From positions 1 to 12,798 of the forward strand of contig LRSL01000032.1 of NCBI GenBank assembly GCA_001563335.1: a DNA stretch of 12,798 nucleotides, written 5' to 3'. The DNA is from Candidatus Thorarchaeota archaeon SMTZ1-45 (GTDB lineage Archaea > Asgardarchaeota > Thorarchaeia > Thorarchaeales > Thorarchaeaceae). Shown here one piece after another: positions 1 to 12,798 of the stretch (its first letter is position 1; the number at the start of each line of letters is the position of its first letter). Under the pieces are notes generated by a model. The model worked only from the letters and a program-made list of their open reading frames with translations, was not told the origin of the DNA and searched no databases. Position numbers and translations under genes: made by a program.

Positions 1-1
1 C

Positions 2-3000
2 ACTTTGGCTATTTGTGTTCAAGGATGTAATTCCGAAACTTGCTTGAGAACTTGAGTTGACGAAATACGTCCAGAGTCCCACTGAAACCTGTGACACAGT
101 CAAATCAAACCAGGAGTTCACGGCATCCCAAGTCATTGCTTGACCTGCGAGTGTGACCGTATCGCCAGCTCCTAGGAATGTGCTGTCGTACGCAAGCCAC
201 AGAGTAACTCGAATCTCAACGTTATCTCCGATATTTACTCGTGTGTCATCAGCTATAGTAGTCTGTACAAGTATCTGATCCCAAATAATTCCTATACTTT
301 GACTATTCGTATCCAATGCAGTAATTCCAAAACTTGCTTGAGTGCTTGAGTTGACAAAATATGTCAAGAGTCCCACTGATGCCTGTGAAACGGTAAGGTC
401 AAACCATGAGTTTCCAGAGTCCCAAGTCATTGCGGTCCCATCAAGGGTTACAGAGTCTCCCGCACCTAGGAATGTACTGTCATATGCTAACCACAGAGAC
501 ACTCGAACCTCGACATTCGTTCCAATATTGACTCGTGTATCATCAGCCACGGTTGTCTGGACCACAATCTGATCCCATATGATGTCAACAGTCTGGCTAT
601 TGATATCAAATACAGTTATTCCATAGGTTGTTTCTGTGCTTGAATTTACATAATATCTCCATAGACCCACAGATACTTGCGAAACTGTTAGCTCGAACCA
701 AGAGTTACCGCCATCCCACGTCATTGCCTGTCCTGCAAGCGTGACAGTATCCCCATTCCCAAGGGGTGTGCTGTCATACGCTAGCCAAAGAGTCACTCTA
801 ACCTCCGCATTGGCTCCAACATTGATTCGTGTATCGTCTGCCACTGTGGTCTGGACTATAATCTGGTCCCAAATGACATCCACACTCTGACCATTCAAAT
901 CTAGAGCAGTAACCCCAAAGTTAGTTTCAGTACTTGAGTTGACAAAATAGGTCCAAAGTCCTATAGAAGCCTGTGATACTGTCAGATCAAACCAGGAGTT
1001 CACGGAATCCCACGTCATTGCGGTTCCATCAAGTGTCACTGAATCTCCCGCACCTAGGAATGTGCTGTCATATGCCAACCACAGAGTGACTCGAACCTCG
1101 ACATTAGTTCCAATATTAACTCGGGTGTCATCAGCCATGGTTGTTTGAACGACAATTTCATCCCAGACCACACCAACACTTTGGCTGTTGGTATCAATTG
1201 CATTAATTCCGAAACCTGCTTGAGTGCTTGAGTTAACAAAGTATGTCCAGAGTCCAACTGATGCCTGTGACACAGTTAGGTCGAACCAAGAGTTACCGCT
1301 ATCCCAAGTCATCGCTTGACCTGCGAGTGTGACTGTATCGCTACTTCCCAGAAAGGTGCTATCATAAGCTAGCCATAGAGTCACATGTATCTCAACATTA
1401 TCACCAACGTTAACACGAGTATCATCTGCTACTGTTGTCTGTACAATAATCTGGTCCCATATGATATCTACACTCTGACTGTTTGTATCTAAAAGAGTGA
1501 TGCCATAAGTAGAATCAGAACTCGAGTTAACGAAGTACGTCCAGAGTCCAACTGAAGCCTGTGATACAGTCAGGTCAAACCAAGAGTTAATACTATCCCA
1601 AGTCATCGCTTGACCTGCGAGTGTAATCGTATCCCCACTCCCGAGAGGCGTGCTGTCATATGCCAGCCACAGGGTCACTCGAACCTCGACATTATCATTC
1701 ACATTGACTCGGGTGTCATCAGCCACGGTTGTTTGAACAACAATTCGATCCCAAATCACTCCAACACTCTGCCCATTCGTATCGAGTGTTGTAATCCCAA
1801 AGTTTGTTTCAGTACTTGAGTTGACAAAGTAAGTCCAAAGTCCCACTGAAGCCTGAGAAACCGTCAGATCAAACCATGAGTTCCCAGCATCCCAAGTCAT
1901 ACCCTGTCCTGCGAGAGTCACAGAATCTCCAGATCCCAAGAATGTGTTATCATAGGCAAGCCACAGAGTCACTCGAATCTCGACATTATCATTCATATTG
2001 ACTCGTGTGTCATCAGCTAAAGTGGTTTGTACAACAATTCGATCCCAAATGACATCTATGCTTTGACTATTTGTATCCAGAACAGTGATACCAAATATGG
2101 CTTCTGAGCTTGAATTGACATAATATCTCCAAAGTCCTACAGAAGCATGAGATACAGTCAAGTCAAACCAAGAGTTCCCACTATCCCAAGTCATTGCTTG
2201 ACCTGCAAGTGTGACAGTATCGCCACTTCCCAGAAATGTAGTATCATATGCCAGCCACAGAGTGACTCGAATCTCAACATTATCTCCCACATTGACTCGG
2301 GTGTCATCAGCCACTGTGGTCTGGACTACAATTTGGTCCCAAATGACATCTATGCTTTGACCATTTGTATCCAGAGCAGTTATTCCATAAGTAGAATCAG
2401 AACTCGAGTTGACGAAATATGTCCAGAGACCTACTGAAGCCTGTGATACAGTCAGGTCAAACCACGAGTTCACGGAGTCCCAGGCCATTGCAGTTCCATC
2501 AAGAGTCACAGAGTTTCCAGCTTCCAAGAATGTACTGTCATATGCCAGCCACAGAGTGACTCGAATCTCAACATTATCTCCCACATTGACTCGTGTGTCA
2601 TCAGCTATTGTCGTCTGAACGACAATCTGATCCCAGATCACTCCAATACTTTGGCTGTTGGTATCAATTGCAGTAATTCCAAAGCCTGTTTGAGTGCTTG
2701 AGTTGACATAATATGTCCAAAGACCGACTGATGCCTGTGATACTAAAAGATCAAACCAAAAGTTCCCACTATCCCAAGTCATCGCTTGACCTGCGAGTGT
2801 GACTGTATCGCCACTTCCCAGAAATGTAGTATCATAAGCAAGCCAAAGCGTAACACGTATCTCTGCATCAGCTCCAACATTGACTCGGGTGTCATCAGCC
2901 ACGGTTGTTTGAACGACAATACGATCCCAGATCACTCCAACACTCTGCCCATTTGTATCGAGTGTTGTAATTCCAAAGTTTGTTTCGGTACTTGAGTTGA

Positions 3001-5428
3001 CAAAGTAAGTCCATAGACCTACAGACGCTTGAGATACAGTTAAGTCAAACCAAGAGTTCCCTGCATCCCAGGTCATTGCTGTTCCATCAAGAGTCACTGA
3101 ATCTCCAGCTCCCAGGAATGTGTTGTCATATGCTAACCAGAGGGTCACTCGAACCTCGACATTATCGTCAACATTGACTCGTGTGTCATCAGCCACTGTG
3201 GTCTGCACGACAATCCGATCCCAAACAACACCAACACTCTGACTGTTAGTATCAATCGCTGTAATTCCAAAACTTGTTTGAGTACTTGAGTTAACGAAGT
3301 AAGTCCAGAGTCCTACTGATGCCTGTGAAACGGTAAGGTCAAACCAAGAGTTACCTGCATCCCACATCATAGCCTGTCCTGCAAGTGTGACAGTATCTCC
3401 ACTTCCAAGGGGCGTGCTGTCATACGCAAGCCATAGTGTCACTCGAACCTCAACGTTATCGTCAACATTGACTCGGGTGTCATCAGCTACCGTGGTCTGC
3501 ACGACAATCTGATCCCAGATGATATCTACATCTTGACCATTCGTATCCAAAGTAGTTATTCCATATATCGTTTCAGCACTCGAATTAACAAAATAAGTCC
3601 AAAGCCCCACTGAAGTTTGAGAAACCATCAGATCAAACCAAGAATTCCCAGAGTCCCATGTCATCGCTTGACCTGCGAGTGTGACAGTATCGCCACTTCC
3701 AAGTGGCGTGTTGTCATATGCTAACCAGAGGGTCACTCGAACCTCGACATTATCGTCAACATTGACTCGTGTGCTATCGGCAACCGTTGTTTGAACTACA
3801 ATCTGATCCCAGACCACACCAACACTTTGGCCATTCGTATCGAGTGTTGTAATCCCAAAGTTAGTTTCAATACTTGAGTTGACAAAGTAAGTCCAAAGCC
3901 CCACTGAAGCCTGAGAAACCGTCAGATCAAACCAAGAATTCCCAGAGTCCCATGTCATCGCTTGTCCTGCGAGAGTTACAGAATCACCAGCTCCTAGGAA
4001 TGTACTATCATAAGCAAGCCAGAGGGTCACTCGAACCTCAACATTGTTTCCGATATTCACTCGGGTGTCATCAGCAACTGTTGTTTGAACCATAATCTGG
4101 TCCCAAATGACATCTACACTTTGACCATTTGTATCTAGAACAGTGATACCATATGTCGACTCTGAGCTTGAATTGACAAAATATCTCCAAAGTCCTATTG
4201 AAGCCTGAGATACGCTAAGGTCAAACCAAGAATTGCCACCATCCCAAGTCATCACTTGTCCAGCAAGTGTGACTGTATCGCTACTCCCTAAAGGCGTACT
4301 GTCATATGCCAGCCAAAGTGTGACACGAATTTCGACAATATCACCCACATTCACTCGGGTATCATCAGCTGTGGTGGTTTGCACTATTATCTGATCCCAG
4401 ACCACACCAACACTTTGGCCATTCGTATCCAAAGCAGTTATTCCATAAGTAGAATCAGAACTCGAGTTGACGTGATATGTCCAGAGACCTACTGAAGCTT
4501 GCGACACTGTCAAATCAAACCAGGAGTTCACGGAGTCCCAAGTCATTGCTTGACCTGCAAGCGTGACGGTATCACCACTTCCCAGAAATGTAGTATCATA
4601 GGCAAGCCAAAGTGTAACACGTATCTCAACAGTATCTCCTATATTGACTCGTGTGTCGTCAGCGACTGTTGTTTGTACTACAATCTGATCCCAAACCACT
4701 CCAACACTCTGACTGTTGGTATCAATCGCAATAATACCGAAACTTGCTTGAGTGCTTGAGTTAACAAAGTAAGTCCAAAGCCCAACTGAAGCCTGAGAAA
4801 CCGTCAAATCAAACCAAGAGTTCACGGAGTCCCAAGTCATTGCTTGACCTGCGAGTGTGACTGTGTCCCCACTCCCAAGGGGCGTGCTGTCATATGCTAA
4901 CCATAGAGTGACACGAATCTCTGCATCAGCTCCGACACTTACTCGTGTATCGTCAGCTACTGTTGTCTGTACAACAATCTGGTCCCAAATAACATCGACA
5001 CTCTGACTATTCAAATCCAAGGCAGTAATTCCGAAATTAGTGTCAGTACTTGAATTAACAAAATAAGTCCAGAGCCCCACTGAGGCCTGAGAAACCGTTA
5101 GATCAAACCACGAATTCCCAGAGTCCCAAGTCATTGCAGTTCCGTCAAGAGTCACTGAATCTCCTGCACCTAGAGGACTGCTATCATATGCCAGCCAGAG
5201 GGTCACTCGAACCTCGACATTATCGTTAGCATTGACTCGGGTGTCATCTGCAACAGTCGTTTGGACAACAATCTGGTCCCATACGACATCCACACTCAGA
5301 CTGTTTGTGTCCAAAGATGTTATTCCGTAACTTGTTTGAGAACTTGAATTTACAAAATATGTCCAGAGCCCAACTGATGCCTGTGACACAGAGAGATCAA
5401 ACCAAGAGTTCACGGAGTCCCAAGTCAT
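2..5428 (-). CDS. Continuation of the giant repeat protein (rest of unit 8 through unit 26, >1800 codons), 3' end outside the window
   Basis: WD[Q/R/E] anchors recur at exact 294-bp spacing from 5275 to 277 with no net indel. Hand translation of 4697-5284 and of the left edge (...NSSSQASFGITSLNTNSQS) gives intact repeats. Its absence from the ORF track fits a frame with no stop inside the window. Repeat homology starts at 5508; the first in-frame ATG is 5426-5428. Confidence 0.88.
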   Translation of the reverse strand, partial: MTWDSVNSWFDLSVSQASVGLWTYFVNSSSQTSYGITSLDTNSLSVDVVWDQIVVQTTVADDTRVNANDNVEVRVTLWLAYDSSPLGAGDSVTLDGTAMTWDSGNSWFDLTVSQASVGLWTYFVNSSTDTNFGITALDLNSQSVDVIWDQIVVQTTVADDTRVSVGADAEIRVTLWLAYDSTPLGSGDTVTLAGQAMTWDSVNSWFDLTVSQASVGLWTYFVNSSTQASFGIIAIDTNSQSVGVVWDQIVVQTTVADDTRVNIGDTVEIRVTLWLAYDTTFLGSGDTVTLAGQAMTWDSVNSWFDLTVSQASVGLWTYHVNSSSDSTYGITALDTNGQSVGVVWDQIIVQTTTADDTRVNVGDIVEIRVTLWLAYDSTPLGSSDTVTLAGQVMTWDGGNSWFDLSVSQASIGLWRYFVNSSSESTYGITVLDTNGQSVDVIWDQIMVQTTVADDTRVNIGNNVEVRVTLWLAYDSTFLGAGDSVTLAGQAMTWDSGNSWFDLTVSQASVGLWTYFVNSSIETNFGITTLDTNGQSVGVVWDQIVVQTTVADSTRVNVDDNVEVRVTLWLAYDNTPLGSGDTVTLAGQAMTWDSGNSWFDLMVSQTSVGLWTYFVNSSAETIYGITTLDTNGQDVDIIWDQIVVQTTVADDTRVNVDDNVEVRVTLWLAYDSTPLGSGDTVTLAGQAMMWDAGNSWFDLTVSQASVGLWTYFVNSSTQTSFGITAIDTNSQSVGVVWDRIVVQTTVADDTRVNVDDNVEVRVTLWLAYDNTFLGAGDSVTLDGTAMTWDAGNSWFDLTVSQASVGLWTYFVNSSTETNFGITTLDTNGQSVGVIWDRIVVQTTVADDTRVNVGADAEIRVTLWLAYDTTFLGSGDTVTLAGQAMTWDSGNFWFDLLVSQASVGLWTYYVNSSTQTGFGITAIDTNSQSIGVIWDQIVVQTTIADDTRVNVGDNVEIRVTLWLAYDSTFLEAGNSVTLDGTAMAWDSVNSWFDLTVSQASVGLWTYFVNSSSDSTYGITALDTNGQSIDVIWDQIVVQTTVADDTRVNVGDNVEIRVTLWLAYDTTFLGSGDTVTLAGQAMTWDSGNSWFDLTVSHASVGLWRYYVNSSSEAIFGITVLDTNSQSIDVIWDRIVVQTTLADDTRVNMNDNVEIRVTLWLAYDNTFLGSGDSVTLAGQGMTWDAGNSWFDLTVSQASVGLWTYFVNSSTETNFGITTLDTNGQSVGVIWDRIVVQTTVADDTRVNVNDNVEVRVTLWLAYDSTPLGSGDTITLAGQAMTWDSINSWFDLTVSQASVGLWTYFVNSSSDSTYGITLLDTNSQSVDIIWDQIIVQTTVADDTRVNVGDNVEIHVTLWLAYDSTFLGSSDTVTLAGQAMTWDSGNSWFDLTVSQASVGLWTYFVNSSTQAGFGINAIDTNSQSVGVVWDEIVVQTTMADDTRVNIGTNVEVRVTLWLAYDSTFLGAGDSVTLDGTAMTWDSVNSWFDLTVSQASIGLWTYFVNSSTETNFGVTALDLNGQSVDVIWDQIIVQTTVADDTRINVGANAEVRVTLWLAYDSTPLGNGDTVTLAGQAMTWDGGNSWFELTVSQVSVGLWRYYVNSSTETTYGITVFDINSQTVDIIWDQIVVQTTVADDTRVNIGTNVEVRVSLWLAYDSTFLGAGDSVTLDGTAMTWDSGNSWFDLTVSQASVGLLTYFVNSSTQASFGITALDTNSQSIGIIWDQILVQTTIADDTRVNIGDNVEIRVTLWLAYDSTFLGAGDTVTLAGQAMTWDAVNSWFDLTVSQVSVGLWTYFVNSSSQASFGITSLNTNSQS

Positions 5429-8400
5429 TGCTTGACCTGCAAGCGTGACCGTATCACCACTTCCCAGAAATGTAGTATCATAGGCAAGCCAGAGTGTAAC
5501 ACGTATCTGATATCTACGCTTTGGCCATTTGTGTCTAAAGATGTAATTCCGAAACCTGCTTGAGTGCTTGAGTTAACAAAGTAAGTCCAGAGTCCCACTG
5601 AGGCCTGTGACACAGAGAGATTAAACCAAGAGTTCACAGAGTCCCAAGTCATCGCTTGTTCTGCGAGAGTCACAGTATCCCCTGATCCAAGAAAAGTACC
5701 ATCATAGGCAAGCCAGAGAGTCACACTAACCTCGACATTAGCTCCGACATTTACGCGTGTGCCATCAGCTACTGTTGTCTGTACAACGATCTGATCCCAG
5801 ATTACCCCAACATTTTGGCTATTGATGTCAATCGTACTAATTCCTAGACCTGCTTGAGTGCTTGAGTTAACAAAGTAAATCCATCGACCGACGGATGCCT
5901 GAGAAACTGTTAGTTCGAACCAAGAGTTTCCTCCATCCCAAGTCATCGCTTGGCCTGCGAGAGTCACAGAATCTCCAGATCCAAGAAAAGTACCATCGTA
6001 GGCAAGCCAGAGAGTGACTCTGACCTCGACATTAGCTCCAACATTTACCCTTGTGTCATCAGCTATGGTCGATTGAACGACAATCTGGTCCCAGATGACA
6101 TCTACGCTTTGACTGTTTGTGTCTAGGCTTGTAATTCCAAAGGCTGCAGCTGAACTTGAGTTAACGAAATAATTCCATCGACCGACTGATCCCTGTGAAA
6201 CGGTGAGGTTAAACCACGAGTTCACGGAGTCCCAAGTCATCACTTGTCCAGCAAGTGTGACTGTATCGCCACTCCCAAGATATGTACTATCATATGCCAA
6301 CCAAAGTGTAACACGTATCTCAACATTATTTCCCATATTTACTCGCGTATCATCAGCCACGGTCGATTGAACGATAATCTGGTCCCAAATGACATCCACG
6401 CTTTGACTGTTTAGAATAAAATCAGATATTCCGTAAGTTGCTTCCAAGGTGGAATTAACAAAATAGCTCCACAATCCTACAGACGCTTGAGAAACTGTAA
6501 GTTCGAACCAAGAGTTTCCAACATCCCAAGTCATCGCTTGGCCTGCAAGCGTGACTGTATCACCACTTCCCAGAAATGTAGTATCATAAGCGAGCCAAAG
6601 TGTAACACGTATCTCAACAGTATCTCCAACGTTAACTCTAGAGTCATCAGCTTCTGTTGTCTGAATGACAATCTGATCCCACACAACATCTACTGCTTGA
6701 CTATTAGTATCTAGAAGAGTGATTCCATACGTTGCATCGGAACTAGAGTTCACATAGTATGTCCAAAGACCAACTGAAGCTTGTGATACAGTCAGGTAAA
6801 ACCGAGAGTTGCCAGCGTCCCAAGTCATTGCTTGACCTGCAAGTGTGATGGTGTCGCCACTTCCCAGAAAGGTGCTATCATATGCCAACCACAGAGTCAC
6901 TCGAACCTCGACATTATCACCCACATTGACTCGAGTGTCATCAGCTTCTGTGGTCTGTACAACAATCTGATCCCAAACAACACCCACACTCTGGCTGTTT
7001 GTGTCCAAAGATGTAATTCCAAAACCTGCTTGACTGCTTGAGTTAACGAAGTAAATCCAGAGTCCAACTGATGCTTGAGAAACTGTAAGTTCGAACCAAG
7101 AATTTCCACCATCCCAAGTCATCGCTTGGCCTGCAAGTGTGACGGTGTCGCCACTTCCCAGAAATGTAGTATCATAAGCGAGCCAAAGTGTAACTCGTAT
7201 CTCAACAGTATCTCCGACATTGACTCGTGTATCATCAGCTAATGTAGTCTGAACGACGATCTGATCCCAAACAACACCCACACTCTGACTGTTTGTGTCC
7301 AAAGATGTAATTCCAAAACCTGCATGAGTGCTTGAGTTAACAAAGTAAGTCCAAAGTCCAACTGAAGCCTGTGACACAGAGAGATCAAACCAAGAGTTCA
7401 CAGAGTCCCAGGTCATAGCTGTTCCATCAAGAGTCACTGAATCTCCTAATCCTAAAGGAGTGCTGTCATATGCAAGCCAGAGAGTGACTCGTATCTCAAC
7501 ATTATCACTAACGTTGACTCGCGTGTCATCAGCTGCAGTGGTCTGTACGATAATCTGGTCCCAAATTACTTGTTGGGAGAGACCATTTTGGTCCACGATA
7601 GTGATTCCATGTGTTCCTCCAGAATAAATGACTGTGTTATAGGTGTTAGCAGTGACTGTTGCTTCAGAGTCTGTAATCCTCCACACACCTGAACCCTGAT
7701 GGGTCGCAAGTATAGAGGAAAGAGTGACAGTACCATCAGTGACTGGTGTATCGTCGGAGTCATAGTAAAGTGTGAAATCAATATTCACACTTGTTCCAAC
7801 ATCCACTCTGTTGTCGGTTACAGAATATGACTGAACTTGAACACGGTCAGCAATATATGTGTCAGTAACGCTGGTTGTGTAATAGAGGTCTGTGCCACCT
7901 GATCCTGCGCCTGCTTCGACTACTTTTATCGTGTATGTGTCCGGACCCACGACATCATCAGCATAGCAGGTGACATTGAATGCACCTGAGGTAAGAGTGA
8001 GGTCACTCCAAGGACCTGCGCTAGTTCCATACTCTGGAGCGGATACCCAGACATCGACTGCGGATGAGGAAGGATGATCATCCACAGAAGTATAGTATAT
8101 GACTGTACCAATAAACCAGAATAATCCATCAAGATCTCCCCTATTCACAGTCCCAGAGCCATCATCAATACTTGGTGTACCAGAATAGTCAAGCCGAGTT
8201 TCAACATCCCAAGTGACATCAGGACTATCATACCAATCATTGTCAATCTCAGCTTGTGCATCAATCACGTAACATCTTACATCCAAATCGCTTGAGTCGG
8301 GAAAGTCCCAGTCAATTGTGAAATTAAAGGTCGCATCGATATCATCTCCACTCCTAATTGCTGTTGAACCCCCCGTGTTCAATGCGACATATGTTCCTGC

Positions 8401-9663
8401 GTCGTATACTTCAGAGAATGTATTCGTATCCTCATCATATCTGAAAGCACAGTACTCTGTGGTGTTTGCGTCATCCCAAAGTTCAATCTCTAGATAGCCA
8501 ATATCCGCAAAGCCATTTTGGTCGCTCACAAAGACTGTAATCTGGTACTCCCTGTATTGAGCATACATGTTATCCGTGTCATCTGGGTTTACGAGGACTG
8601 GTGCCTGTCTATTTGTTGGAGTATAGACCGGAGTCCAAGTGTGGAGAAGTGTTGAATCAATCTCCCACAAACTTTGGCTCGAGTCACTCGTTTCAGATCC
8701 ACCCTTGAATCTCAAAGTGAGTGTGACAGAATCTAGCCAAGTTGAAACAGAAACATTGTTCCAAGTGTTAGGATCAAGGTCTGCGAACAGGTTTTCCCAG
8801 CCAGTCCCGTTCCAGACATCTACCTTGATGTCTTCTGCATCTAAGTCACCTGTGTAGATGCAGACAAACTCGTTTTCCTCAGAGTATGATGCGGATGTCC
8901 ACTGAACCTCTCTATCAAGCTCATAATTGACTGTTGCTGTTCTGTTGACTCCAATTCTAATGTGGTCCACATGGACCTCATCAACACCATCGACTTGACT
9001 ATAGACTAAATAGACTCTCAAGGCATTGACTTCTGCTTGTGTATGAAGCCCTAAACTTATGTTGTCGTAGTAATAGCTGGTGTGTTGACCAACAACTCCT
9101 ACAGAAGTGCCTGCTCCTGATCCAGTATAATCCACAAAGACTTCTGCTGAGTCATCTCCAGCCCCCGCTATGTTCATGCAGTAGATCGAAATGTTAACAC
9201 TGACAGTTCCTGTTATGGCTGTATTTTCGAATTCGAACCAGCCAATCTGATCGCTCGGCTGCTTTGTGTAGATATAATTGGTTGGCTCATCTTGAGCATC
9301 AAGATAGGGGGCAGTTCCAATAGTGGTCCATCCAGTCCAAGTGGAATCATTATTATTAGTGTCCAACCACTCAGAACCACCTGGGGTGCCAGTATCGTTC
9401 TCGGTGAGTGTGTCGTAGGTAGAATCAGGGGCTGACTGTTGATCCACGAAGTTAGAATGTGTCCCTATGTTGGTTGAACTGTCCACATCGCTTGTATTAG
9501 AATCTACAAAGTCCTCTATATTCCCTGCAGGAACTGCTTGATAATATGGCAAGAATGAATCAACATTAAGGGGAATCTCTATAGGGCTTTCCACATTCGA
9601 GCAGAAAGTCATGAAGAGAAGGAATATGCACATTAAAAAGATGCAACTTTTTCTTTTATTCAT
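5425..9663 (-). CDS. Giant secreted/cell-surface repeat protein, N-terminal part (1412 aa): signal peptide, beta-rich N-terminal domains, 1 diverged + 7 conserved 98-aa Ig-like repeats; ends prematurely after a frameshift
   Basis: ATG with GAGGGGG 7 nt upstream. N-terminus is MNKRK plus a hydrophobic stretch. Composition is S/T/D/V/G/W-rich. Repeats read WDQIVVQTT..DDTRVN..VE.RVTLWLAYD...MTWD..NSWF.LTVSQASVGLW.YFVNSS. The last ~27 aa (RYVLHSG...QVKQ) are repeat DNA read out of frame. Confidence 0.9.
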   Translation of the reverse strand: MNKRKSCIFLMCIFLLFMTFCSNVESPIEIPLNVDSFLPYYQAVPAGNIEDFVDSNTSDVDSSTNIGTHSNFVDQQSAPDSTYDTLTENDTGTPGGSEWLDTNNNDSTWTGWTTIGTAPYLDAQDEPTNYIYTKQPSDQIGWFEFENTAITGTVSVNISIYCMNIAGAGDDSAEVFVDYTGSGAGTSVGVVGQHTSYYYDNISLGLHTQAEVNALRVYLVYSQVDGVDEVHVDHIRIGVNRTATVNYELDREVQWTSASYSEENEFVCIYTGDLDAEDIKVDVWNGTGWENLFADLDPNTWNNVSVSTWLDSVTLTLRFKGGSETSDSSQSLWEIDSTLLHTWTPVYTPTNRQAPVLVNPDDTDNMYAQYREYQITVFVSDQNGFADIGYLEIELWDDANTTEYCAFRYDEDTNTFSEVYDAGTYVALNTGGSTAIRSGDDIDATFNFTIDWDFPDSSDLDVRCYVIDAQAEIDNDWYDSPDVTWDVETRLDYSGTPSIDDGSGTVNRGDLDGLFWFIGTVIYYTSVDDHPSSSAVDVWVSAPEYGTSAGPWSDLTLTSGAFNVTCYADDVVGPDTYTIKVVEAGAGSGGTDLYYTTSVTDTYIADRVQVQSYSVTDNRVDVGTSVNIDFTLYYDSDDTPVTDGTVTLSSILATHQGSGVWRITDSEATVTANTYNTVIYSGGTHGITIVDQNGLSQQVIWDQIIVQTTAADDTRVNVSDNVEIRVTLWLAYDSTPLGLGDSVTLDGTAMTWDSVNSWFDLSVSQASVGLWTYFVNSSTHAGFGITSLDTNSQSVGVVWDQIVVQTTLADDTRVNVGDTVEIRVTLWLAYDTTFLGSGDTVTLAGQAMTWDGGNSWFELTVSQASVGLWIYFVNSSSQAGFGITSLDTNSQSVGVVWDQIVVQTTEADDTRVNVGDNVEVRVTLWLAYDSTFLGSGDTITLAGQAMTWDAGNSRFYLTVSQASVGLWTYYVNSSSDATYGITLLDTNSQAVDVVWDQIVIQTTEADDSRVNVGDTVEIRVTLWLAYDTTFLGSGDTVTLAGQAMTWDVGNSWFELTVSQASVGLWSYFVNSTLEATYGISDFILNSQSVDVIWDQIIVQSTVADDTRVNMGNNVEIRVTLWLAYDSTYLGSGDTVTLAGQVMTWDSVNSWFNLTVSQGSVGRWNYFVNSSSAAAFGITSLDTNSQSVDVIWDQIVVQSTIADDTRVNVGANVEVRVTLWLAYDGTFLGSGDSVTLAGQAMTWDGGNSWFELTVSQASVGRWIYFVNSSTQAGLGISTIDINSQNVGVIWDQIVVQTTVADGTRVNVGANVEVSVTLWLAYDGTFLGSGDTVTLAEQAMTWDSVNSWFNLSVSQASVGLWTYFVNSSTQAGFGITSLDTNGQSVDIRYVLHSGLPMILHFWEVVIRSRLQVKQ
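5500..5516 (-). other. 70-bp frameshifting deletion junction in repeat unit 8 (between 5508 and 5509)
   Basis: Anchor spacing 5275 to 5793 is 518 = 2x294 - 70. The sequence acacgtatct|gatatctac joins two motifs that are 70 nt apart in intact units (compare 3441-3530). Confidence 0.93.
7567..7854 (-). repeat. Diverged 96-aa first unit of the array
   Basis: IADRVQVQSYSVTDNRVDVGTSVNIDFTLYYDSDDTP...HGITIVDQNGLSQQV aligns by eye with IWDQIVVQTTVADDTRVNVGDNVEIRVTLWLAYDSTP...FGITSLDTNSQSVDV. Confidence 0.8.
9589..9663 (-). other. Signal peptide or N-terminal membrane anchor of the giant protein
   Basis: MNKRKS (basic n-region) followed by CIFLMCIFLLFMTFC (hydrophobic h-region). The cleavage site is not obvious. 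Confidence 0.75.
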
Positions 9664-9670
9664 CTCATCT

Positions 9671-9677
9671 CCCCCTC
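9671..9677 (-). promoter_or_regulatory. Shine-Dalgarno-like site of the giant gene
   Basis: GAGGGGG lies 7 nt upstream of the ATG at 9663. Confidence 0.65.
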
Positions 9678-9721
9678 TGACATAATGTAAGTCTAAACAT
9701 CACTTGAGAAATTTTCATCTG

Positions 9722-9735
9722 CAAACCCGGGTTTG
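9722..9735. promoter_or_regulatory. Perfect 14-bp palindrome, candidate operator
   Basis: CAAACCCGGGTTTG is self-complementary and lies about 60 bp upstream of the giant gene start. Confidence 0.35.
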
Positions 9736-9949
9736 GTGGCTGATTCTCTTGACTATCTGCAGCTGAAATGGCTTACACCCCTCAAGCATCTCTACAGCAG
9801 CGATGAAATTGAAATCACTAACTCACCCTTGTTGCATATGGAGCCTTATTTGATTATTGATAAAATAGACAACAAATCCCTCTATATGTTGAAACAATGT
9901 TACCTCACGAATCATGGTCAACTTCGTCACTGAAACGATAATATTAACG

Positions 9950-9974
9950 AAAAAAAGGGTAGAGCTACGAAAAA
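9950..9974 (-). terminator. Candidate archaeal oligo-T terminator
   Basis: The minus strand reads TTTTTCGTAGCTCTACCCTTTTTTT (T5 and T7 tracts), 14-38 nt after the stop of the 108-aa gene. Confidence 0.5.
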
Positions 9975-9987
9975 TACCATTTGCAAT

Positions 9988-10314
9988 TTAATGTGAAACT
10001 TGTTGTTCTTCTTCTTCATTTTCTGTACGTACGTCAGCTAACCAAAGGGGAATAGCCAGATTCCGTCCATAACCAAGTGCAACCAGAATGATGCTAAGAA
10101 CGATAGAAACCAACAAAAGCACCACTGGGCTGTGGAAAGGTCTGCCATACCAACCCGTAATGCTGAATGGGACCTCCAAGCCAAAATACTTCCAAGTATG
10201 ATCCAAATCAAGCAAAGCACTAGTAACGCCACAAATCCCGAAGACAAGAAATGCACGAAAAAGAAACTCATCTCTACTCAATCCTTTTGAGGTGTCATTG
10301 GTAGTCATTTCCAT
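9988..10314 (-). CDS. Small membrane protein with DLDH...GRPFHS motif, resembling the core of YdjM-like membrane metal-dependent hydrolases
   Basis: 108 aa. Two hydrophobic helices flank LLDLDH and GRPFHS, similar to the PDxD...HRxxxHS signature. Acidic C-terminal tail. Confidence 0.7.
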   Translation of the reverse strand: MEMTTNDTSKGLSRDEFLFRAFLVFGICGVTSALLDLDHTWKYFGLEVPFSITGWYGRPFHSPVVLLLVSIVLSIILVALGYGRNLAIPLWLADVRTENEEEEQQVSH

Positions 10315-10340
10315 ACGCCTACCATCATGGCTCTGGAATC

Positions 10341-10375
10341 CTTTAAGCGTGTCTGCTTCTTTGAAAGATGTCTGC
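10341..10375 (-). promoter_or_regulatory. Candidate TATA box plus upstream repeat/palindrome site for the 108-aa gene
   Basis: CTTAAAG lies about 27-33 nt before the ATG at 10314. Just upstream is GCAGACA-TCTTTCAAAGA-A-GCAGACA. Confidence 0.3.
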
Positions 10376-10442
10376 CAGCTAATGGATATCAGGCCATTCT
10401 ATGACTTTTATTTCTTAACTTAAGTCCTTTTTGTTACCAAGA

Positions 10443-10778
10443 CTACTTTCTCTTTGCTTCTGCCCTCAGTCTGAGAATCCTTCGAAGGTCGATTAATGCG
10501 CCGATGAGAAAAAGTGTTGAGAGTGCAAGTAAGACTGCAATGACTATTAGATAGGATGGTGCGTAATATCGAACAAGCAAGGCAAATTGAAACATACTCG
10601 CTCCTATTGACATTAGAATGAGAAAACGAATTAGTAAAAGACATCGACCTCGATCGAATCTGTTCGGATGCACAGGTGGATTTGTATAATGTTTAATGTC
10701 AGAATGGAGGTAATCATCTATTAGTTCCTCACGTTTCTCATCTGTCACAGGTCTGCAGCCCCTTAGCATGAAGTCCAT
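10443..10778 (-). CDS. Hypothetical membrane protein with two TM helices
   Basis: 111 aa, with a charged N-terminus, two hydrophobic segments and a basic C-tail (RRILRLRAEAKRK). Co-oriented with its neighbours. The true start may be the GTG at 10748, which has AGGGG upstream. Confidence 0.65.
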   Translation of the reverse strand: MDFMLRGCRPVTDEKREELIDDYLHSDIKHYTNPPVHPNRFDRGRCLLLIRFLILMSIGASMFQFALLVRYYAPSYLIVIAVLLALSTLFLIGALIDLRRILRLRAEAKRK

Positions 10779-10901
10779 TCTGGCGTTTTTGTATCAACAT
10801 TCAACTATTATCCCGTAGAAAAGTATTGCTTGTTTGTGGGGAATCTCCTTGATTTCATCAATGGAACTGATTTGTGAATTACTTCCATTTGCTATGAATG
10901 G

Positions 10902-11948
10902 CTATCTATTCCGAATCTTTATGTCATATCCACATTTTTGACACTTCCCATTAGCATCAGTAGCAACATTTCTTGAGAACAGCCTTAGTCTTTCATAACA
11001 AAGAGTCCCACATACTGGGCATAGAGTATCTTCAAGCCCCTTTCTACCAACATTGCCAATGTACACAAACTCTAATCCTATCGTTTTAGCTTTCTCTCTA
11101 GCCTGTACGAGCACCTCGAGCGATGTCATGGGTTCTGTGTACTTGTAGCTAGGATAGTACCTATTCAGATGCCAAGGTGTCTTTGGTCCAGTACTATCCA
11201 CTATCCACCTTGCAATCGTTTCAAGACATTCCACGTCATCACTGAGTTCCGGAACAACCAGTGTTGTGAGTTCCACATGGACTCCACGGTCAATCATGTG
11301 TATGATGTTGTCCAATACTGGTTGGAGTGCAATCCCACAGATCTGTCGGACTTGAGGCTCACATCCTTTTACATCAACATTTGCAGCATCTAGACCTGCA
11401 TCGATCATGAGTTCAAGAGCCTCTTTTGTCATGTATCCGTTCGTGACGATTGTATTGTATAAACCACCTTCTCTCGCTAGTTTGAACACCTCAAGGTTCC
11501 ACTCTAGCATCAACGTCGCCGCTTCGCTAAAGGATATTGACACTCCCTCACTTCCCCTTGCCTGAGCCATATTGATGAACTGCTCAGGACTCACATACCG
11601 CGCCAACTCTGGAGTAGGTTTCTGCTTGGAAATGTCGAAGTTCTGACAGAAAGGACAAGAAGCATTACATCCCCAACTCCCCACGGTAAGCGCGGATGTG
11701 CCTGGCGCAAAATGGAAGAATGGTTTTTTCTCGATGGGATTATTACTGATAGATGAAACATTCCCATAGACTAAAGTCTTCACAGAGTTACCGATGTTTA
11801 ATCGTGTGCCGCATACCCCCAATTTCTGTTCACGAAGCAGACATCTATGAGCGCAAGTAAAGCATCGGATAGCATCATCTTCTCTAATCTGAAGAACACC
11901 TTCATGGACTACCTGCGGAATGAACTGATCTATTTGGATCTCTGTCAA
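10902..11948 (-). CDS. amrS: AmmeMemoRadiSam system radical SAM enzyme (PFL-activase-like)
   Basis: N-terminal CxxCxHxC...GxCxxR, PIEKKPFFHF.PG, radical SAM motif GCNASCPFCQN, VTNGY, DAANVDVKG, VELTTLVVP, GLEFVYIGNV, and C-terminal CPVCG...CQKCG. TTG start. Confidence 0.9.
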   Translation of the reverse strand: MTEIQIDQFIPQVVHEGVLQIREDDAIRCFTCAHRCLLREQKLGVCGTRLNIGNSVKTLVYGNVSSISNNPIEKKPFFHFAPGTSALTVGSWGCNASCPFCQNFDISKQKPTPELARYVSPEQFINMAQARGSEGVSISFSEAATLMLEWNLEVFKLAREGGLYNTIVTNGYMTKEALELMIDAGLDAANVDVKGCEPQVRQICGIALQPVLDNIIHMIDRGVHVELTTLVVPELSDDVECLETIARWIVDSTGPKTPWHLNRYYPSYKYTEPMTSLEVLVQAREKAKTIGLEFVYIGNVGRKGLEDTLCPVCGTLCYERLRLFSRNVATDANGKCQKCGYDIKIRNR

Positions 11949-11952
11949 TTTA

Positions 11953-11975
11953 GTCTACAATTATTGAGTGTAGAC
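11953..11975. promoter_or_regulatory. Inverted repeat immediately upstream of the amrS start
   Basis: GTCTACA-N9-TGTAGAC ends 4 nt from the TTG. A TATA-like CTATAA is at 11984-11989 on the minus strand. Confidence 0.35.
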
Positions 11976-12034
11976 CGCCCAGATTATAGAAGCTATTAAG
12001 GCAAATTCCTTTTCACATTCTCTAATCTCCTATT

Positions 12035-12798
12035 CTAACTTGAAATGGCAGGACGAATAAGGCTGCATGCTCCTTCATTGTAGACTCTCATTCTCCCTCC
12101 CTTGAAAGCTCCAATAAGAGTGATGTTAGCTTTCTGAGCAAATTTCACTCCTGCATCAGTGGAAACAGCGAAGGACACAAGCAACGGGATTGAAGTCCAA
12201 GCACATTTACTGACAATATCTGCTGTAAGCCGTCCTGAGCTTATCATCATGCACTCTGTCAAGTCGATATTCTCCTGGGCTGCTAGACCTATCGTCTTAT
12301 CTACTGCGTTATGCCGTCCAAGGTCCTCAGCCATTACATACTTTTCTTCACTCAAGCTATAGAGAAGTGCCCCATGTAATGCACCAGTTTGTTTTCGACC
12401 AACTTGTGCATCTCGTAATAATCCGGTCGTTTCATAGAGTTTATTGAGCCCGATCTCTATCCTCTTTGAAATTGTAGGAAGCCCTTCTGCAGTTCTGAGT
12501 TCTCTTAGCACCTCTGGAGCACTGCATTCAGTCCCAATGAACCTTCGAATCTGAGAGAAACCTTTTCGGGGCTGCGGCACCACTTCCTCTTTGACCTTGA
12601 TAGAACAACGGTGCCCAGAGCACCTCACCTCACTAACTTCTGCATATGATTTGATGATACCAGTAGACAGAAGGTACCCAATCGAGAGTTCTTTTTCTAG
12701 ACCTGGGCTGCAGACAAAAGCTGCAATGAACTCCTTATTCAATCTCACTTCTAATGCTGTTTCAATGGCAACGAAATCATCTTCACTGATGCTATCAT
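12035..12798 (-). CDS. fdhD: Formate dehydrogenase accessory sulfurtransferase FdhD, 5' end outside the window
   Basis: Motifs TGALHGA, EDLGRHNAVDKTIG, SSGRLTADIVSK and IGYLLSTGII. The frame stays open upstream of the listed GTG (DSISEDDFVAIETALEVRLN, matching the FdhD D.VA.E..L motif) to the window edge. Confidence 0.93.
   Translation of the reverse strand, partial: DSISEDDFVAIETALEVRLNKEFIAAFVCSPGLEKELSIGYLLSTGIIKSYAEVSEVRCSGHRCSIKVKEEVVPQPRKGFSQIRRFIGTECSAPEVLRELRTAEGLPTISKRIEIGLNKLYETTGLLRDAQVGRKQTGALHGALLYSLSEEKYVMAEDLGRHNAVDKTIGLAAQENIDLTECMMISSGRLTADIVSKCAWTSIPLLVSFAVSTDAGVKFAQKANITLIGAFKGGRMRVYNEGACSLIRPAISS

Follow-up and report, generated by a model that had tools for sequence, protein, structure and literature searches.

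In this study, we focus on a 12,798-nucleotide (nt) stretch of DNA from Candidatus Thorarchaeota archaeon SMTZ1-45 (NCBI GenBank assembly GCA_001563335.1, contig LRSL01000032.1, positions 1 to 12,798), here called the window. It is the whole of contig C32 of a metagenome-assembled genome (MAG, G000) of 3.54 Mb in 119 contigs, which is 87.7% complete with 5.8% contamination. On its minus strand, from an ATG at position 9663, it carries the 5' part of a giant gene whose product is probably a type-I membrane-anchored surface fibre, adhesin or tether, of a Thorarchaeota-type Asgard archaeon. The chain would count at least ~7,600 amino acids (aa), possibly ~10,000. The evidence that carries this reading is a long array of tandem 98-aa units modelled as an immunoglobulin-like (Ig-like) rod, the head that precedes it, and the membrane anchor at the C-terminus of its complete homologues.

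The array is seen by three routes. Tandem Repeats Finder (TRF) detects a 294-nt (98-aa) period in 6.9 copies over 5528-7566 and in 18.7 copies over 1-5491, with 74-75% matches, as well as an odd 224-nt period at 5304-5726. A tblastn search with one unit gives 26 matches in the window, and a hidden Markov model (HMM) of the unit finds 7 + 18 whole units, one truncated unit and one diverged unit at aa 600-695, with per-unit E-values of ~1e-35 to 1e-40, which chance does not explain. These results confirm the 26-copy, Trp-rich 98-aa array that had been announced from the letters of the window alone (the sequence-only reading). Each unit carries five Trp at fixed positions, and Trp accounts for 5.0% of the residues in the array, compared with 1.4% for the long open reading frames (ORFs) of the same genome. 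The same reading had called the array near-perfect, which it is not: over the 300 pairs formed by the 25 whole units, DNA identity ranges from 0.66 to 0.85 (mean 0.74) and protein identity from 0.68 to 0.89 (mean 0.79).

The divergence of the units is informative about their history. Between unit pairs, the proportion of synonymous differences (pS) is 0.68 and that of nonsynonymous differences (pN) 0.125, the median dN/dS is 0.08, and dS is undefined in 61 of the 300 pairs, the synonymous sites being saturated. Saturation together with low dN/dS means that the array is old and that every unit is individually kept by selection, and this in turn argues against an expansion by the assembly. Judged from these sequence comparisons, the mode of evolution of the array is unusual, with old, position-specific units under strong selection. 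It is hardly credible that the array would be an artefact in which a few real repeats were expanded or collapsed. The gene does lie at contig ends, and at least one junction (5508|5509) looks mis-assembled, but all units are distinct in DNA (the top pairwise identity being 0.85), single units have their own ordered orthologues in another MAG, and public contigs are identical to the window over many stretches of 4700-6300. A weak super-repeat of seven units was also observed in 5-5296, where DNA identity at a distance of seven is 0.791 (11 pairs) versus 0.753 over all pairs. None of 10,000 random draws attained 0.791, which points to seven units having been duplicated together long ago.

The composition of the units is equally particular. 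The 25 whole units (2450 aa, window 5-7578) contain no Lys and no Cys, have an isoelectric point (pI) of ~4, and carry one N-X-S/T sequon (N-S-S) at unit position 81 in 25 of 25 cases, along with three near-invariant Asp (D7, D18, D38). These features would fit a glycosylated extracellular protein. The conserved N-S-S of each unit is a candidate site of N-glycosylation, and the Asp residues might, by analogy with the bacterial adhesin SiiE, stiffen the domain borders through Ca2+. In practice, an array without Lys can be cut by trypsin only at Arg, which hampers tryptic proteomics.

Fold of the units and of the head

The fold of the units was modelled with AlphaFold2 (AF2) on three consecutive units, the alignment being made of 20 three-unit windows of this genome. 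The model is all-beta and has no low-confidence linker, with a predicted local distance difference test (pLDDT) of 95.3 and a predicted template modelling score (pTM) of 0.79. A Foldseek search with it gives 227 matches in the PDB at E<=1e-3, with Hoc, FdeC, titin, SiiE, GhpA and MpIBP at the top, and VIA-align against 48,161 chains ranks FdeC (Z 10.4), invasin (9.6), Hoc (9.0), InvE (8.9), intimin (8.7) and SiiE (8.2). According to this model, the units form a linkerless tandem rod of Ig-like beta-sandwiches. The linkerless rod suggested earlier from the alternating beta pattern thus finds agreement in a modelled chain that is continuous and whose nearest structures are adhesin tandem Ig rods.

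No named sequence family accompanies this fold. Pfam searches with the ORFs, with one unit and with 58 units taken singly gave nothing above cut-off, and no family appeared on more than 2 of the 58 units. Big_3_5 appeared on 1 of the 58 at E 0.039, below cut-off, and the thresholds of Big_1-Big_9, Cadherin, PKD and FN3 were not reached. DUF7738 gave summed sub-threshold matches on the ~82-aa diverged domains of contig C91 (the continuation of the gene, see below) and of relatives, never on the window unit. NCBIfam gave no match, and the best match of the unit profile to PDB sequences, at E 0.65 (SlpX 8aol), is unusable. In the ESM Atlas, the three-unit query gave leads only below 0.9, to archaeal clusters in which a minority of the members carry Big_3_5, MG4, CarboxypepD_reg or Big_7. 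The sequence-only reading could not assign the unit to a named family, and no family of Pfam, NCBIfam or PDB sequences fits it here. The family thus adds an unnamed Ig-like domain, the complete members being of type I with a conserved cytoplasmic tail.

Ahead of the array, the translation bears out the ~600 aa of unique sequence that had been described. The N-terminus, read from the sequence, likewise looks like the signal peptide described there (MNKRK, then a hydrophobic core). The AF2 model of the head (aa 28-600) has a pLDDT of 83 overall and is low at its start. Its jelly-roll (aa ~95-242) exceeds 90 and is aligned by VIA-align with the MAM domain of meprin (7auw, Z 9.7, root-mean-square deviation 3.5, 130 aligned residues), and also with the EphA2 ligand-binding domain, CBM29/32 and reelin. 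Further on, a pair of domains that we call module B begins with a domain (aa 348-489) that matches nanobodies and VH domains (Z 9.9, root-mean-square deviation 2.9, 117 aligned residues). Its second domain (aa 490-600) has a pLDDT of ~45-64, and matches to Fab fragments span residues 321-573 of the model, that is both domains of the module. The domain that lies in between (aa 246-344) has no Pfam match and recurs in relatives. It is 52-53% identical to the repeats of a Bathyarchaeota LamG-domain protein (P0211), and a ~40-aa motif of aa 28-94 is likewise common to P0211 and repeated in it. From this identity, the head shares parts with other archaeal surface proteins.

Some family relatives carry DUF2341, and the N-terminus of one protein, P0009, has three matched stretches. 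Relatives of the head are also found in Bathyarchaeota and in unnamed metagenome proteins, together with LamG, F5/8 type C, PKD, CARDB and archaeal pilin-type N-termini (the proteins of this DUF2341 and head-relative set being P0009, P0290, P0303, P0221, P0222 and P0225).

Continuation of the gene, its probable anchor and its frame

In the assembly, the gene is carried by two ORFs of the minus strand. The upstream one (5425..9663) counts 1412 aa, of which the last 27 residues are out of frame, and then meets a stop; the downstream one (2..5428) is stop-free over 1809 aa and open at its 3' end. The sequence-only reading had taken the chain as one, and the frameshift was missed. The length of more than 3240 aa given for the window stands if the missing 70 nt are restored (3244 codons) and does not stand for the gene as assembled (3220).

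The array extends to base 1 of C32, so it has indeed not ended at the edge of the window, and since the window is the entire contig the gene is truncated by the assembly. Contigs C32 and C91 share an exact 36-nt end overlap and join in frame. There are 31 end overlaps of 24-94 nt in this assembly, so such overlaps mark contig adjacency. The whole length of C91 forms a single open frame of 4409 aa, and C32 + C91 read through 6207 aa from the ATG of the second ORF without a stop, for a total of ~7,620 aa that is still open and that contains 68 unit-like domains. The junction is independently bridged by a contig of a relative (L013). Its units match the window's units b13 (95% nt identity), b14, b15 (92%), b16 and b17 in order, where the within-array median is 0.74, so that the units are position-specific orthologues in the relative. 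This contig then runs on into the last four Trp-rich units of C91 and the region behind its array at 82%; compared with the array described here, four units are missing from it.

Beyond C91, the gene was followed through its homologues. Together, C91 and C70 (1004 aa including a C-terminus) are collinear at 62-79% with a complete 6620-aa homologue (G012:C55), whose N-terminus is 57% identical to the window head. The order C32, C91, gap, C70 is therefore likely, as far as collinearity can tell, and by analogy the gap would amount to ~1,500 aa and the whole to ~10,000 aa, which is an extrapolation. Contigs C46, C68 and C95 resemble another complete homologue, G031:C42 (3643 aa), and represent a second gene. 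A single ~10,700-aa gene made of C32 + C91 + C68 + C95 was considered and dropped, because C68 and C95 match G031:C42 while C32, C91 and C70 match G012:C55. This genome contains at least four paralogous giant genes with differing heads and tails, which had escaped the earlier reading. C68 consists of a single 1841-aa open frame, and C66 carries a paralogue of 4682 aa. A C-terminus is present in the 1292 aa found on C95, and C46 and C90 add further N-termini of giant genes. On C90 (L031, minus strand), a 910-aa ORF at 1632-4361 with an N-terminal hydrophobic segment is overlapped by a 584-aa frame at 2-1753, which contains module B and runs off the contig; this ORF is probably a fourth giant-gene N-terminus.

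The three complete homologues (G012:C55, G031:C42 and the 4666-aa G001:C8) all have an N-terminal hydrophobic segment (Kyte-Doolittle), one C-terminal transmembrane (TM) helix, basic residues and a tail of 115-190 aa. The C-terminal fragments of this genome (C95, C70, C66) have the same ending of TM helix and tail. The earlier suggestion to extend the contig towards a C-terminal anchor is answered in part, by the continuation into C91 and by the endings of the homologues. Read from the sequence, the topology of the homologues is that of a type-I membrane protein and not that of an archaeosortase substrate: the PGF-CTERM-like ending of a TM helix and a short basic stub was not found in the homologues and own fragments, where 115-190 aa follow the TM helix. 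The cytoplasmic tails are of two types. Type 1 (C95 3230-3877; L029) has a Glu/Pro-rich acidic stretch and then two short LTKxELxxL-like helices, and is conserved between C95 and the 3643-aa homologue. The C95 tail has no Pfam match, a suspected HeH/SAP/Rho_N-like motif was not supported, and the type-2 tail gave no usable match in the ESM Atlas.

Taken together, these elements suggest how the protein could work. A Sec-type signal peptide would export the chain, and its distal end would be the head, with the MAM/CBM-like jelly-roll, the conserved small beta-sandwich and the V-set-like Ig pair. Behind it would come 26 linkerless 98-aa Ig-like units (34 with the next contig) as a semi-rigid rod of ~90 nm or more, then ~3,600 aa of diverged units with two further head-like modules. 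The C-terminal end would be the single TM helix, basic residues and 115-190-aa cytoplasmic tail found in the homologues and own fragments. Such a rod would stand out from the single membrane and hold binding modules far from the cell, its most likely job being to grip partner cells, particles or polymers. The candidate binding parts would be the jelly-roll and V-set-like modules at the tip and the two copies of module B along C91. The length is scaled on SiiE, which measures 175 nm for 53 domains (PMC6272769): the 27 units of the window would give ~90 nm, and the 68 domains of C32 + C91 more than 200 nm if extended. The ~100 nm proposed earlier is a reasonable figure for the window part on this scale (90-100 nm). 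We infer both the export and the adhesive function from the sequence features.

A more ambitious version of this scheme would make the protein a transmembrane adhesion receptor. In it, a single chain of about 8,000-10,000 aa would link an extracellular Ig rod with several lectin/V-set-like binding modules, through its one TM helix, to a helical and conserved domain in the cytoplasm, which would be in contact with the Asgard cytoskeleton or signalling machinery. We regard it as a long shot. If true, syntrophic partners would be held by a logic resembling that of cadherins and integrins, in the lineage closest to eukaryotes, and the chain would be among the largest archaeal proteins. More generally, a cultured Lokiarchaeon, the one that has been imaged, has a single membrane, no ordered S-layer and "complex surface proteins" (PMC9834061), and the family provides concrete candidates for such Asgard surface structures in Thorarchaeia.

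Several points weigh against the membrane-anchored fibre. Only one of the five unit models is confident, the other four having a pLDDT of 49-66. In the head, the fold matches at Z 9-10 stand little above the background of 7-8 stated for the tool, and folds shared with binding domains do not imply binding. The picture of a head on a stalk, as first proposed, holds insofar as head and array are both present, and fails insofar as head-like modules recur inside the chain: module B is found twice within C91, and also in C68, C95 and C66. The gene's own C-terminus lies outside the window, and its assignment to C70 is by collinearity alone, with no end overlap between C91 and C70. The public runs listed as carrying window sequence include no RNA run. 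Finally, a frameshift interrupts the gene in its assembled form, and among the public contigs listed none bridges 5508|5509, as assembled or otherwise.

This break deserves attention, because a real frameshift would mean a decaying pseudogene, or a 1412-aa secreted or shed protein without anchor whose downstream array is untranslated. The unit at 5508|5509 lacks 23 codons and 1 nt, that is 70 nt, and measures 224 nt instead of 294, with a stop at 5425-5427. The junction was checked with Logan contigs from four public metagenome runs (X1-X4, from four studies) aligned to 4700-6300, where X3 and X4 leave some parts uncovered. In these two runs, contigs that are identical to the window over 5509-5583 depart exactly at 5509 and read on as a normal unit (VWDQIVIQTT). 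In X1 and X2, contigs depart exactly at 5508 and read GDTV before EIRVTLW. The undeleted continuation is thus carried on both sides of the breakpoint across the four runs. Joints 4987->5509, which point the same way, occur in X1 and X4, and in X1, the best holder, the depth of 7.3 at the joint resembles that of its neighbours. At <=2 mismatches, the 29-nt continuation occurs nowhere in this assembly; at 3 mismatches its matches in the window are confined to three other units, the nearest being exactly one unit (294 nt) above the expected place. The downstream frame is free of stops over its 1809 aa (6207 with C91), and its units show the same dN/dS as the upstream ones. The arrays of relatives are uninterrupted, and in one of them (L014) the spacing is exactly 294 nt for 15 of 15 consecutive units. 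Because of the contig departures at the breakpoint, the stop-free downstream frame and the unbroken arrays in relatives, the frameshift is very probably an assembly artefact or a minor variant and not a natural feature of the gene, while a real frameshift, on whose side stand the deletion and the stop of the assembly, the lack of a bridging contig and a second such junction in a paralogue, is quite improbable.

The second junction is that of the complete C66 paralogue (L004, 3530-4927 and 4920-18965), which has its own deletion plus frameshift and is a second suspect one in the giant genes of this MAG. There, a 466-aa N-terminal ORF stops in the middle of a conserved ~100-aa domain, and the 4682-aa frame starts at module B. 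MAG gene calls badly under-report such genes: the one of the window is spread over at least two, probably three, contigs and split by a likely false frameshift.

Distribution, neighbourhood and two other explanations

The closest named relatives of the units are MAGs of Candidatus Thorarchaeota / Promethearchaeota, with 72-84% identity over three units, which agrees with the archaeal origin assigned before; no archaeal small-subunit ribosomal RNA was found in this MAG at its 87.7% completeness, and the taxon is therefore read from the named relatives. In a first draw of relatives, the unit profile was found in 15 of 18 genomes of the same genus and in 0 of 12 outside it. Within the class, it was found in 53 of 87 genomes including this one (52 of 85 in family f1, 0 of 1 in the other family) and in 9 of 17 genera, all nine in f1. 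Of 251 genomes sampled from the phylum, 41 were positive, 33 of 59 in f1 and 7 of 191 in all other families, the latter at E of only 1e-6 to 1e-10. Mapping the range of the HMM, as had been advised, therefore shows units concentrated in one family of the class and patchy among its genera. Among 1.84 billion representative proteins, the profile retrieves 905 clusters at E<=1e-3, of which 289 reach E<=1e-30. In a search restricted to <=5000 aa, 40 proteins with lengths of 3167-5000 aa have E<=1e-20; the named ones are all "hypothetical protein" and a few are labelled Hermodarchaeota or Sifarchaeia. A 5.2-kb contig labelled "uncultured Ignavibacteria bacterium" (L012, CAYOSZ010000191.1) has 84% protein identity to three window units and aligns at ~81% in DNA with the C91 continuation; its label is most likely a binning error.

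This distribution bears on the main alternative explanation, in which the protein would not be a ligand-seeking adhesin but a structural coat or canopy of the envelope, non-crystalline or S-layer-like, whose units pack laterally between molecules. At least 23 of the 25 units agree at about 58 of their 98 positions, a point that counts against a fibre: such constancy despite synonymous saturation indicates a constraint beyond what a spacer needs, and fits lateral packing in a coat. Nearly all unit residues, on both strand faces, are under strong purifying selection, each unit has one conserved glycosylation sequon, and the S-layer protein of Nitrosopumilus (8c8o) is among the Foldseek matches of the head model, as a weak fold match. 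Archaeal S-layer proteins are often Ig-like chains on a membrane anchor, as is the 292-kDa Pyrobaculum protein with 19 Ig-like domains (10.64898/2026.08.21.746120), and the "complex surface proteins" of the Lokiarchaeon would suit a coat as well. On the other side, 3.6-6.6k aa and more is far above known lattice formers, the number of units varies between close relatives (four fewer in L013), each genome has at least four paralogues that differ in head and tail, an essential component of the envelope should occur everywhere and not in 9 of 17 genera, and the profile search of the PDB related the unit to no solved S-layer protein by sequence, the best match (SlpX) being at E 0.65. A coat is in our view unlikely, and the membrane-anchored fibre is preferred to it.

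The patchiness could also point to cargo of a mobile element, similar to the Otus/Ephialtes tandem giant genes of the "aloposons" of Heimdallarchaeum. Wu et al. 2022 report distant relatives of the aloposon giant genes from two MAGs of Thorarchaeota, and more broadly giant genes that lie in tandem in Thorarchaeota and numerous unrelated ones across the Asgard archaea (PMC8813620). Of the aloposon context (a downstream tRNA site, an upstream four-gene set with ParA/MinD, tandem giants), nothing was found on these short contigs, which allow a partial test: there is no tRNA gene in the window, L003 (C95), L004 (C66) or L005, and neither ParA/MinD nor an integrase was seen among the neighbours. 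These are housekeeping genes (FdhD, AmmeMemoRadiSam radical SAM, acyl-CoA dehydrogenase, aconitase-family and isopropylmalate-dehydrogenase-family). The GC content is ~0.45 over the giant gene for 0.42 in the whole genome. Such an origin is very improbable.

In the window itself, two small ORFs without family match lie upstream of the giant gene on the same strand, followed by the gene of an AmmeMemoRadiSam-system radical SAM enzyme at 10902-11948 (-) (TIGR04337, 253.8 bits for a cut-off of 220) and by the FdhD gene at 12035-12796 (-). In G001, the radical SAM orthologue (78%) shares a contig with the 4666-aa homologue, ~34 kb apart. Positions 12705-12798 form an exact 94-nt overlap with contig C61, 94 nt being the commonest overlap length in this assembly. 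A scan of 9500-10950 with bacterial promoter and terminator models, which are not applicable to archaea, gave nothing above shuffles. The features of the giant gene are listed in Table 1.

Table 1. Features of the giant gene in the window
Feature	Position	Strand	Basis
Start codon and putative Sec-type signal peptide (aa 1-27)	9583..9663	-	Basic n-region KRK, hydrophobic core, polar c-region
Acidic Asp/Ser/Thr-rich N-terminal segment with ~40-aa motif (aa 28-94)	9382..9582	-	Motif sharing with P0211; low pLDDT
Jelly-roll beta-sandwich, MAM/CBM-like (aa ~95-242)	8938..9381	-	AF2 model, VIA-align
Conserved ~100-aa beta-sandwich domain (aa 246-344)	8632..8928	-	Identity to P0211 repeats; recurrence in relatives
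V-set-like Ig domain, first half of module B (aa 348-489)	8197..8622	-	VIA-align
Second beta domain of module B, low-confidence model (aa 490-600)	7864..8196	-	AF2 head model
Diverged Ig-like unit (aa 601-695)	7579..7863	-	Unit HMM, 23 bits
Seven whole Trp-rich 98-aa units, upstream frame	5521..7578	-	HMM 161-179 bits, exact 294-nt spacing
Truncated unit, 224 nt, breakpoint 5508|5509, frame change and stop 5425-5427	5297..5520	-	TRF period 224
Eighteen whole Trp-rich 98-aa units, downstream frame, open at contig end	5..5296	-	HMM 176-186 bits
36-nt contig end identical to C91 end, gene continues in frame	1..36	-	End overlap; L013 bridges

Comparison with known systems

Giant proteins of Asgard archaea have been noticed before. 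Asgard MAG proteins of more than 3000 aa, including some from Thorarchaeota, are already listed (PMC8813620; PMC11573180), and a survey of "neglected giants" counts three Thorarchaeota proteins of at least 5000 aa (PMC11573180). In the available parts of these two papers, no analysis of domain family, fold, anchor or array was found for this Ig-repeat family. Our search of the literature on giant, surface, Ig-like and S-layer proteins of Thorarchaeota and Asgard archaea found no description of the family, although the figures and supplements of PMC8813620 may list members. Compared with the systems below, the giant protein would work like the giant Ig-repeat adhesins, yet it is a member of no tested family, because its topology is opposite, its export route is different and no sequence matches.

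The best structural matches of the three-unit model are FdeC (4e9l, Z 10.4 over 250 residues), invasin (1cwv, Z 9.6) and intimin, which are stiff strings of ~100-aa Ig-like domains that keep a binding tip away from the cell. The giant protein differs from them in that it matches no Pfam family, Big families included, and in that it would use an N-terminal signal peptide and a C-terminal TM helix whereas these adhesins use an outer-membrane beta-barrel. Its domain count is also about ten-fold higher, and its host is a single-membrane archaeon.

A closer likeness in size is found with SiiE, LapA, MpIBP and GhpA, which have dozens of tandem Ig-like domains in a rod of ~100-200 nm with terminal binding modules (PMC6272769 for SiiE). 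The long tandem Ig-like array of these giant adhesins of type I secretion systems (T1SS) and of the RTX group is also what the AF2 model and fold searches indicate here. The T1SS signal and RTX features were not found, the N-terminus being signal-peptide-like, the C-termini of the family consisting of TM helix and tail, and the Pfam scans giving no RTX family. The topology is thus opposite, with a distal N-terminus and anchorage by the C-terminal TM helix and tail. In SiiE, conserved Asp at the domain borders bind Ca2+ and stiffen the rod, to which D7, D18 and D38 of the units here may be compared. Many bacterial adhesin repeat arrays are kept alike, whereas the giant protein has old repeats whose DNA has diverged and whose synonymous sites are saturated.

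Among archaea, the nearest comparison is with the multi-Ig S-layer proteins of Pyrobaculum (PySLP) and Nitrosopumilus, which are also membrane-anchored surface chains of Ig-like domains. PySLP has 19 such domains for 292 kDa and 37 nm (10.64898/2026.08.21.746120), while C32 + C91 encode at least 68 unit-like domains of the giant protein. In contrast to these S-layer proteins, it has several paralogues per genome and is patchy across genera, and no sequence relation between them was found.

The mode of evolution of the array recalls yet another giant. Fragments of the titin I-band are among the fold matches of the three-unit model, although titin is an intracellular protein of eukaryotic muscle with no sequence relation to the one described here. 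In titin, the positions of the tandem Ig domains are conserved between species while neighbouring domains differ, just as units b13-b17 of the window map in order onto those of a relative, and it is on this evolutionary mode that the analogy is drawn.

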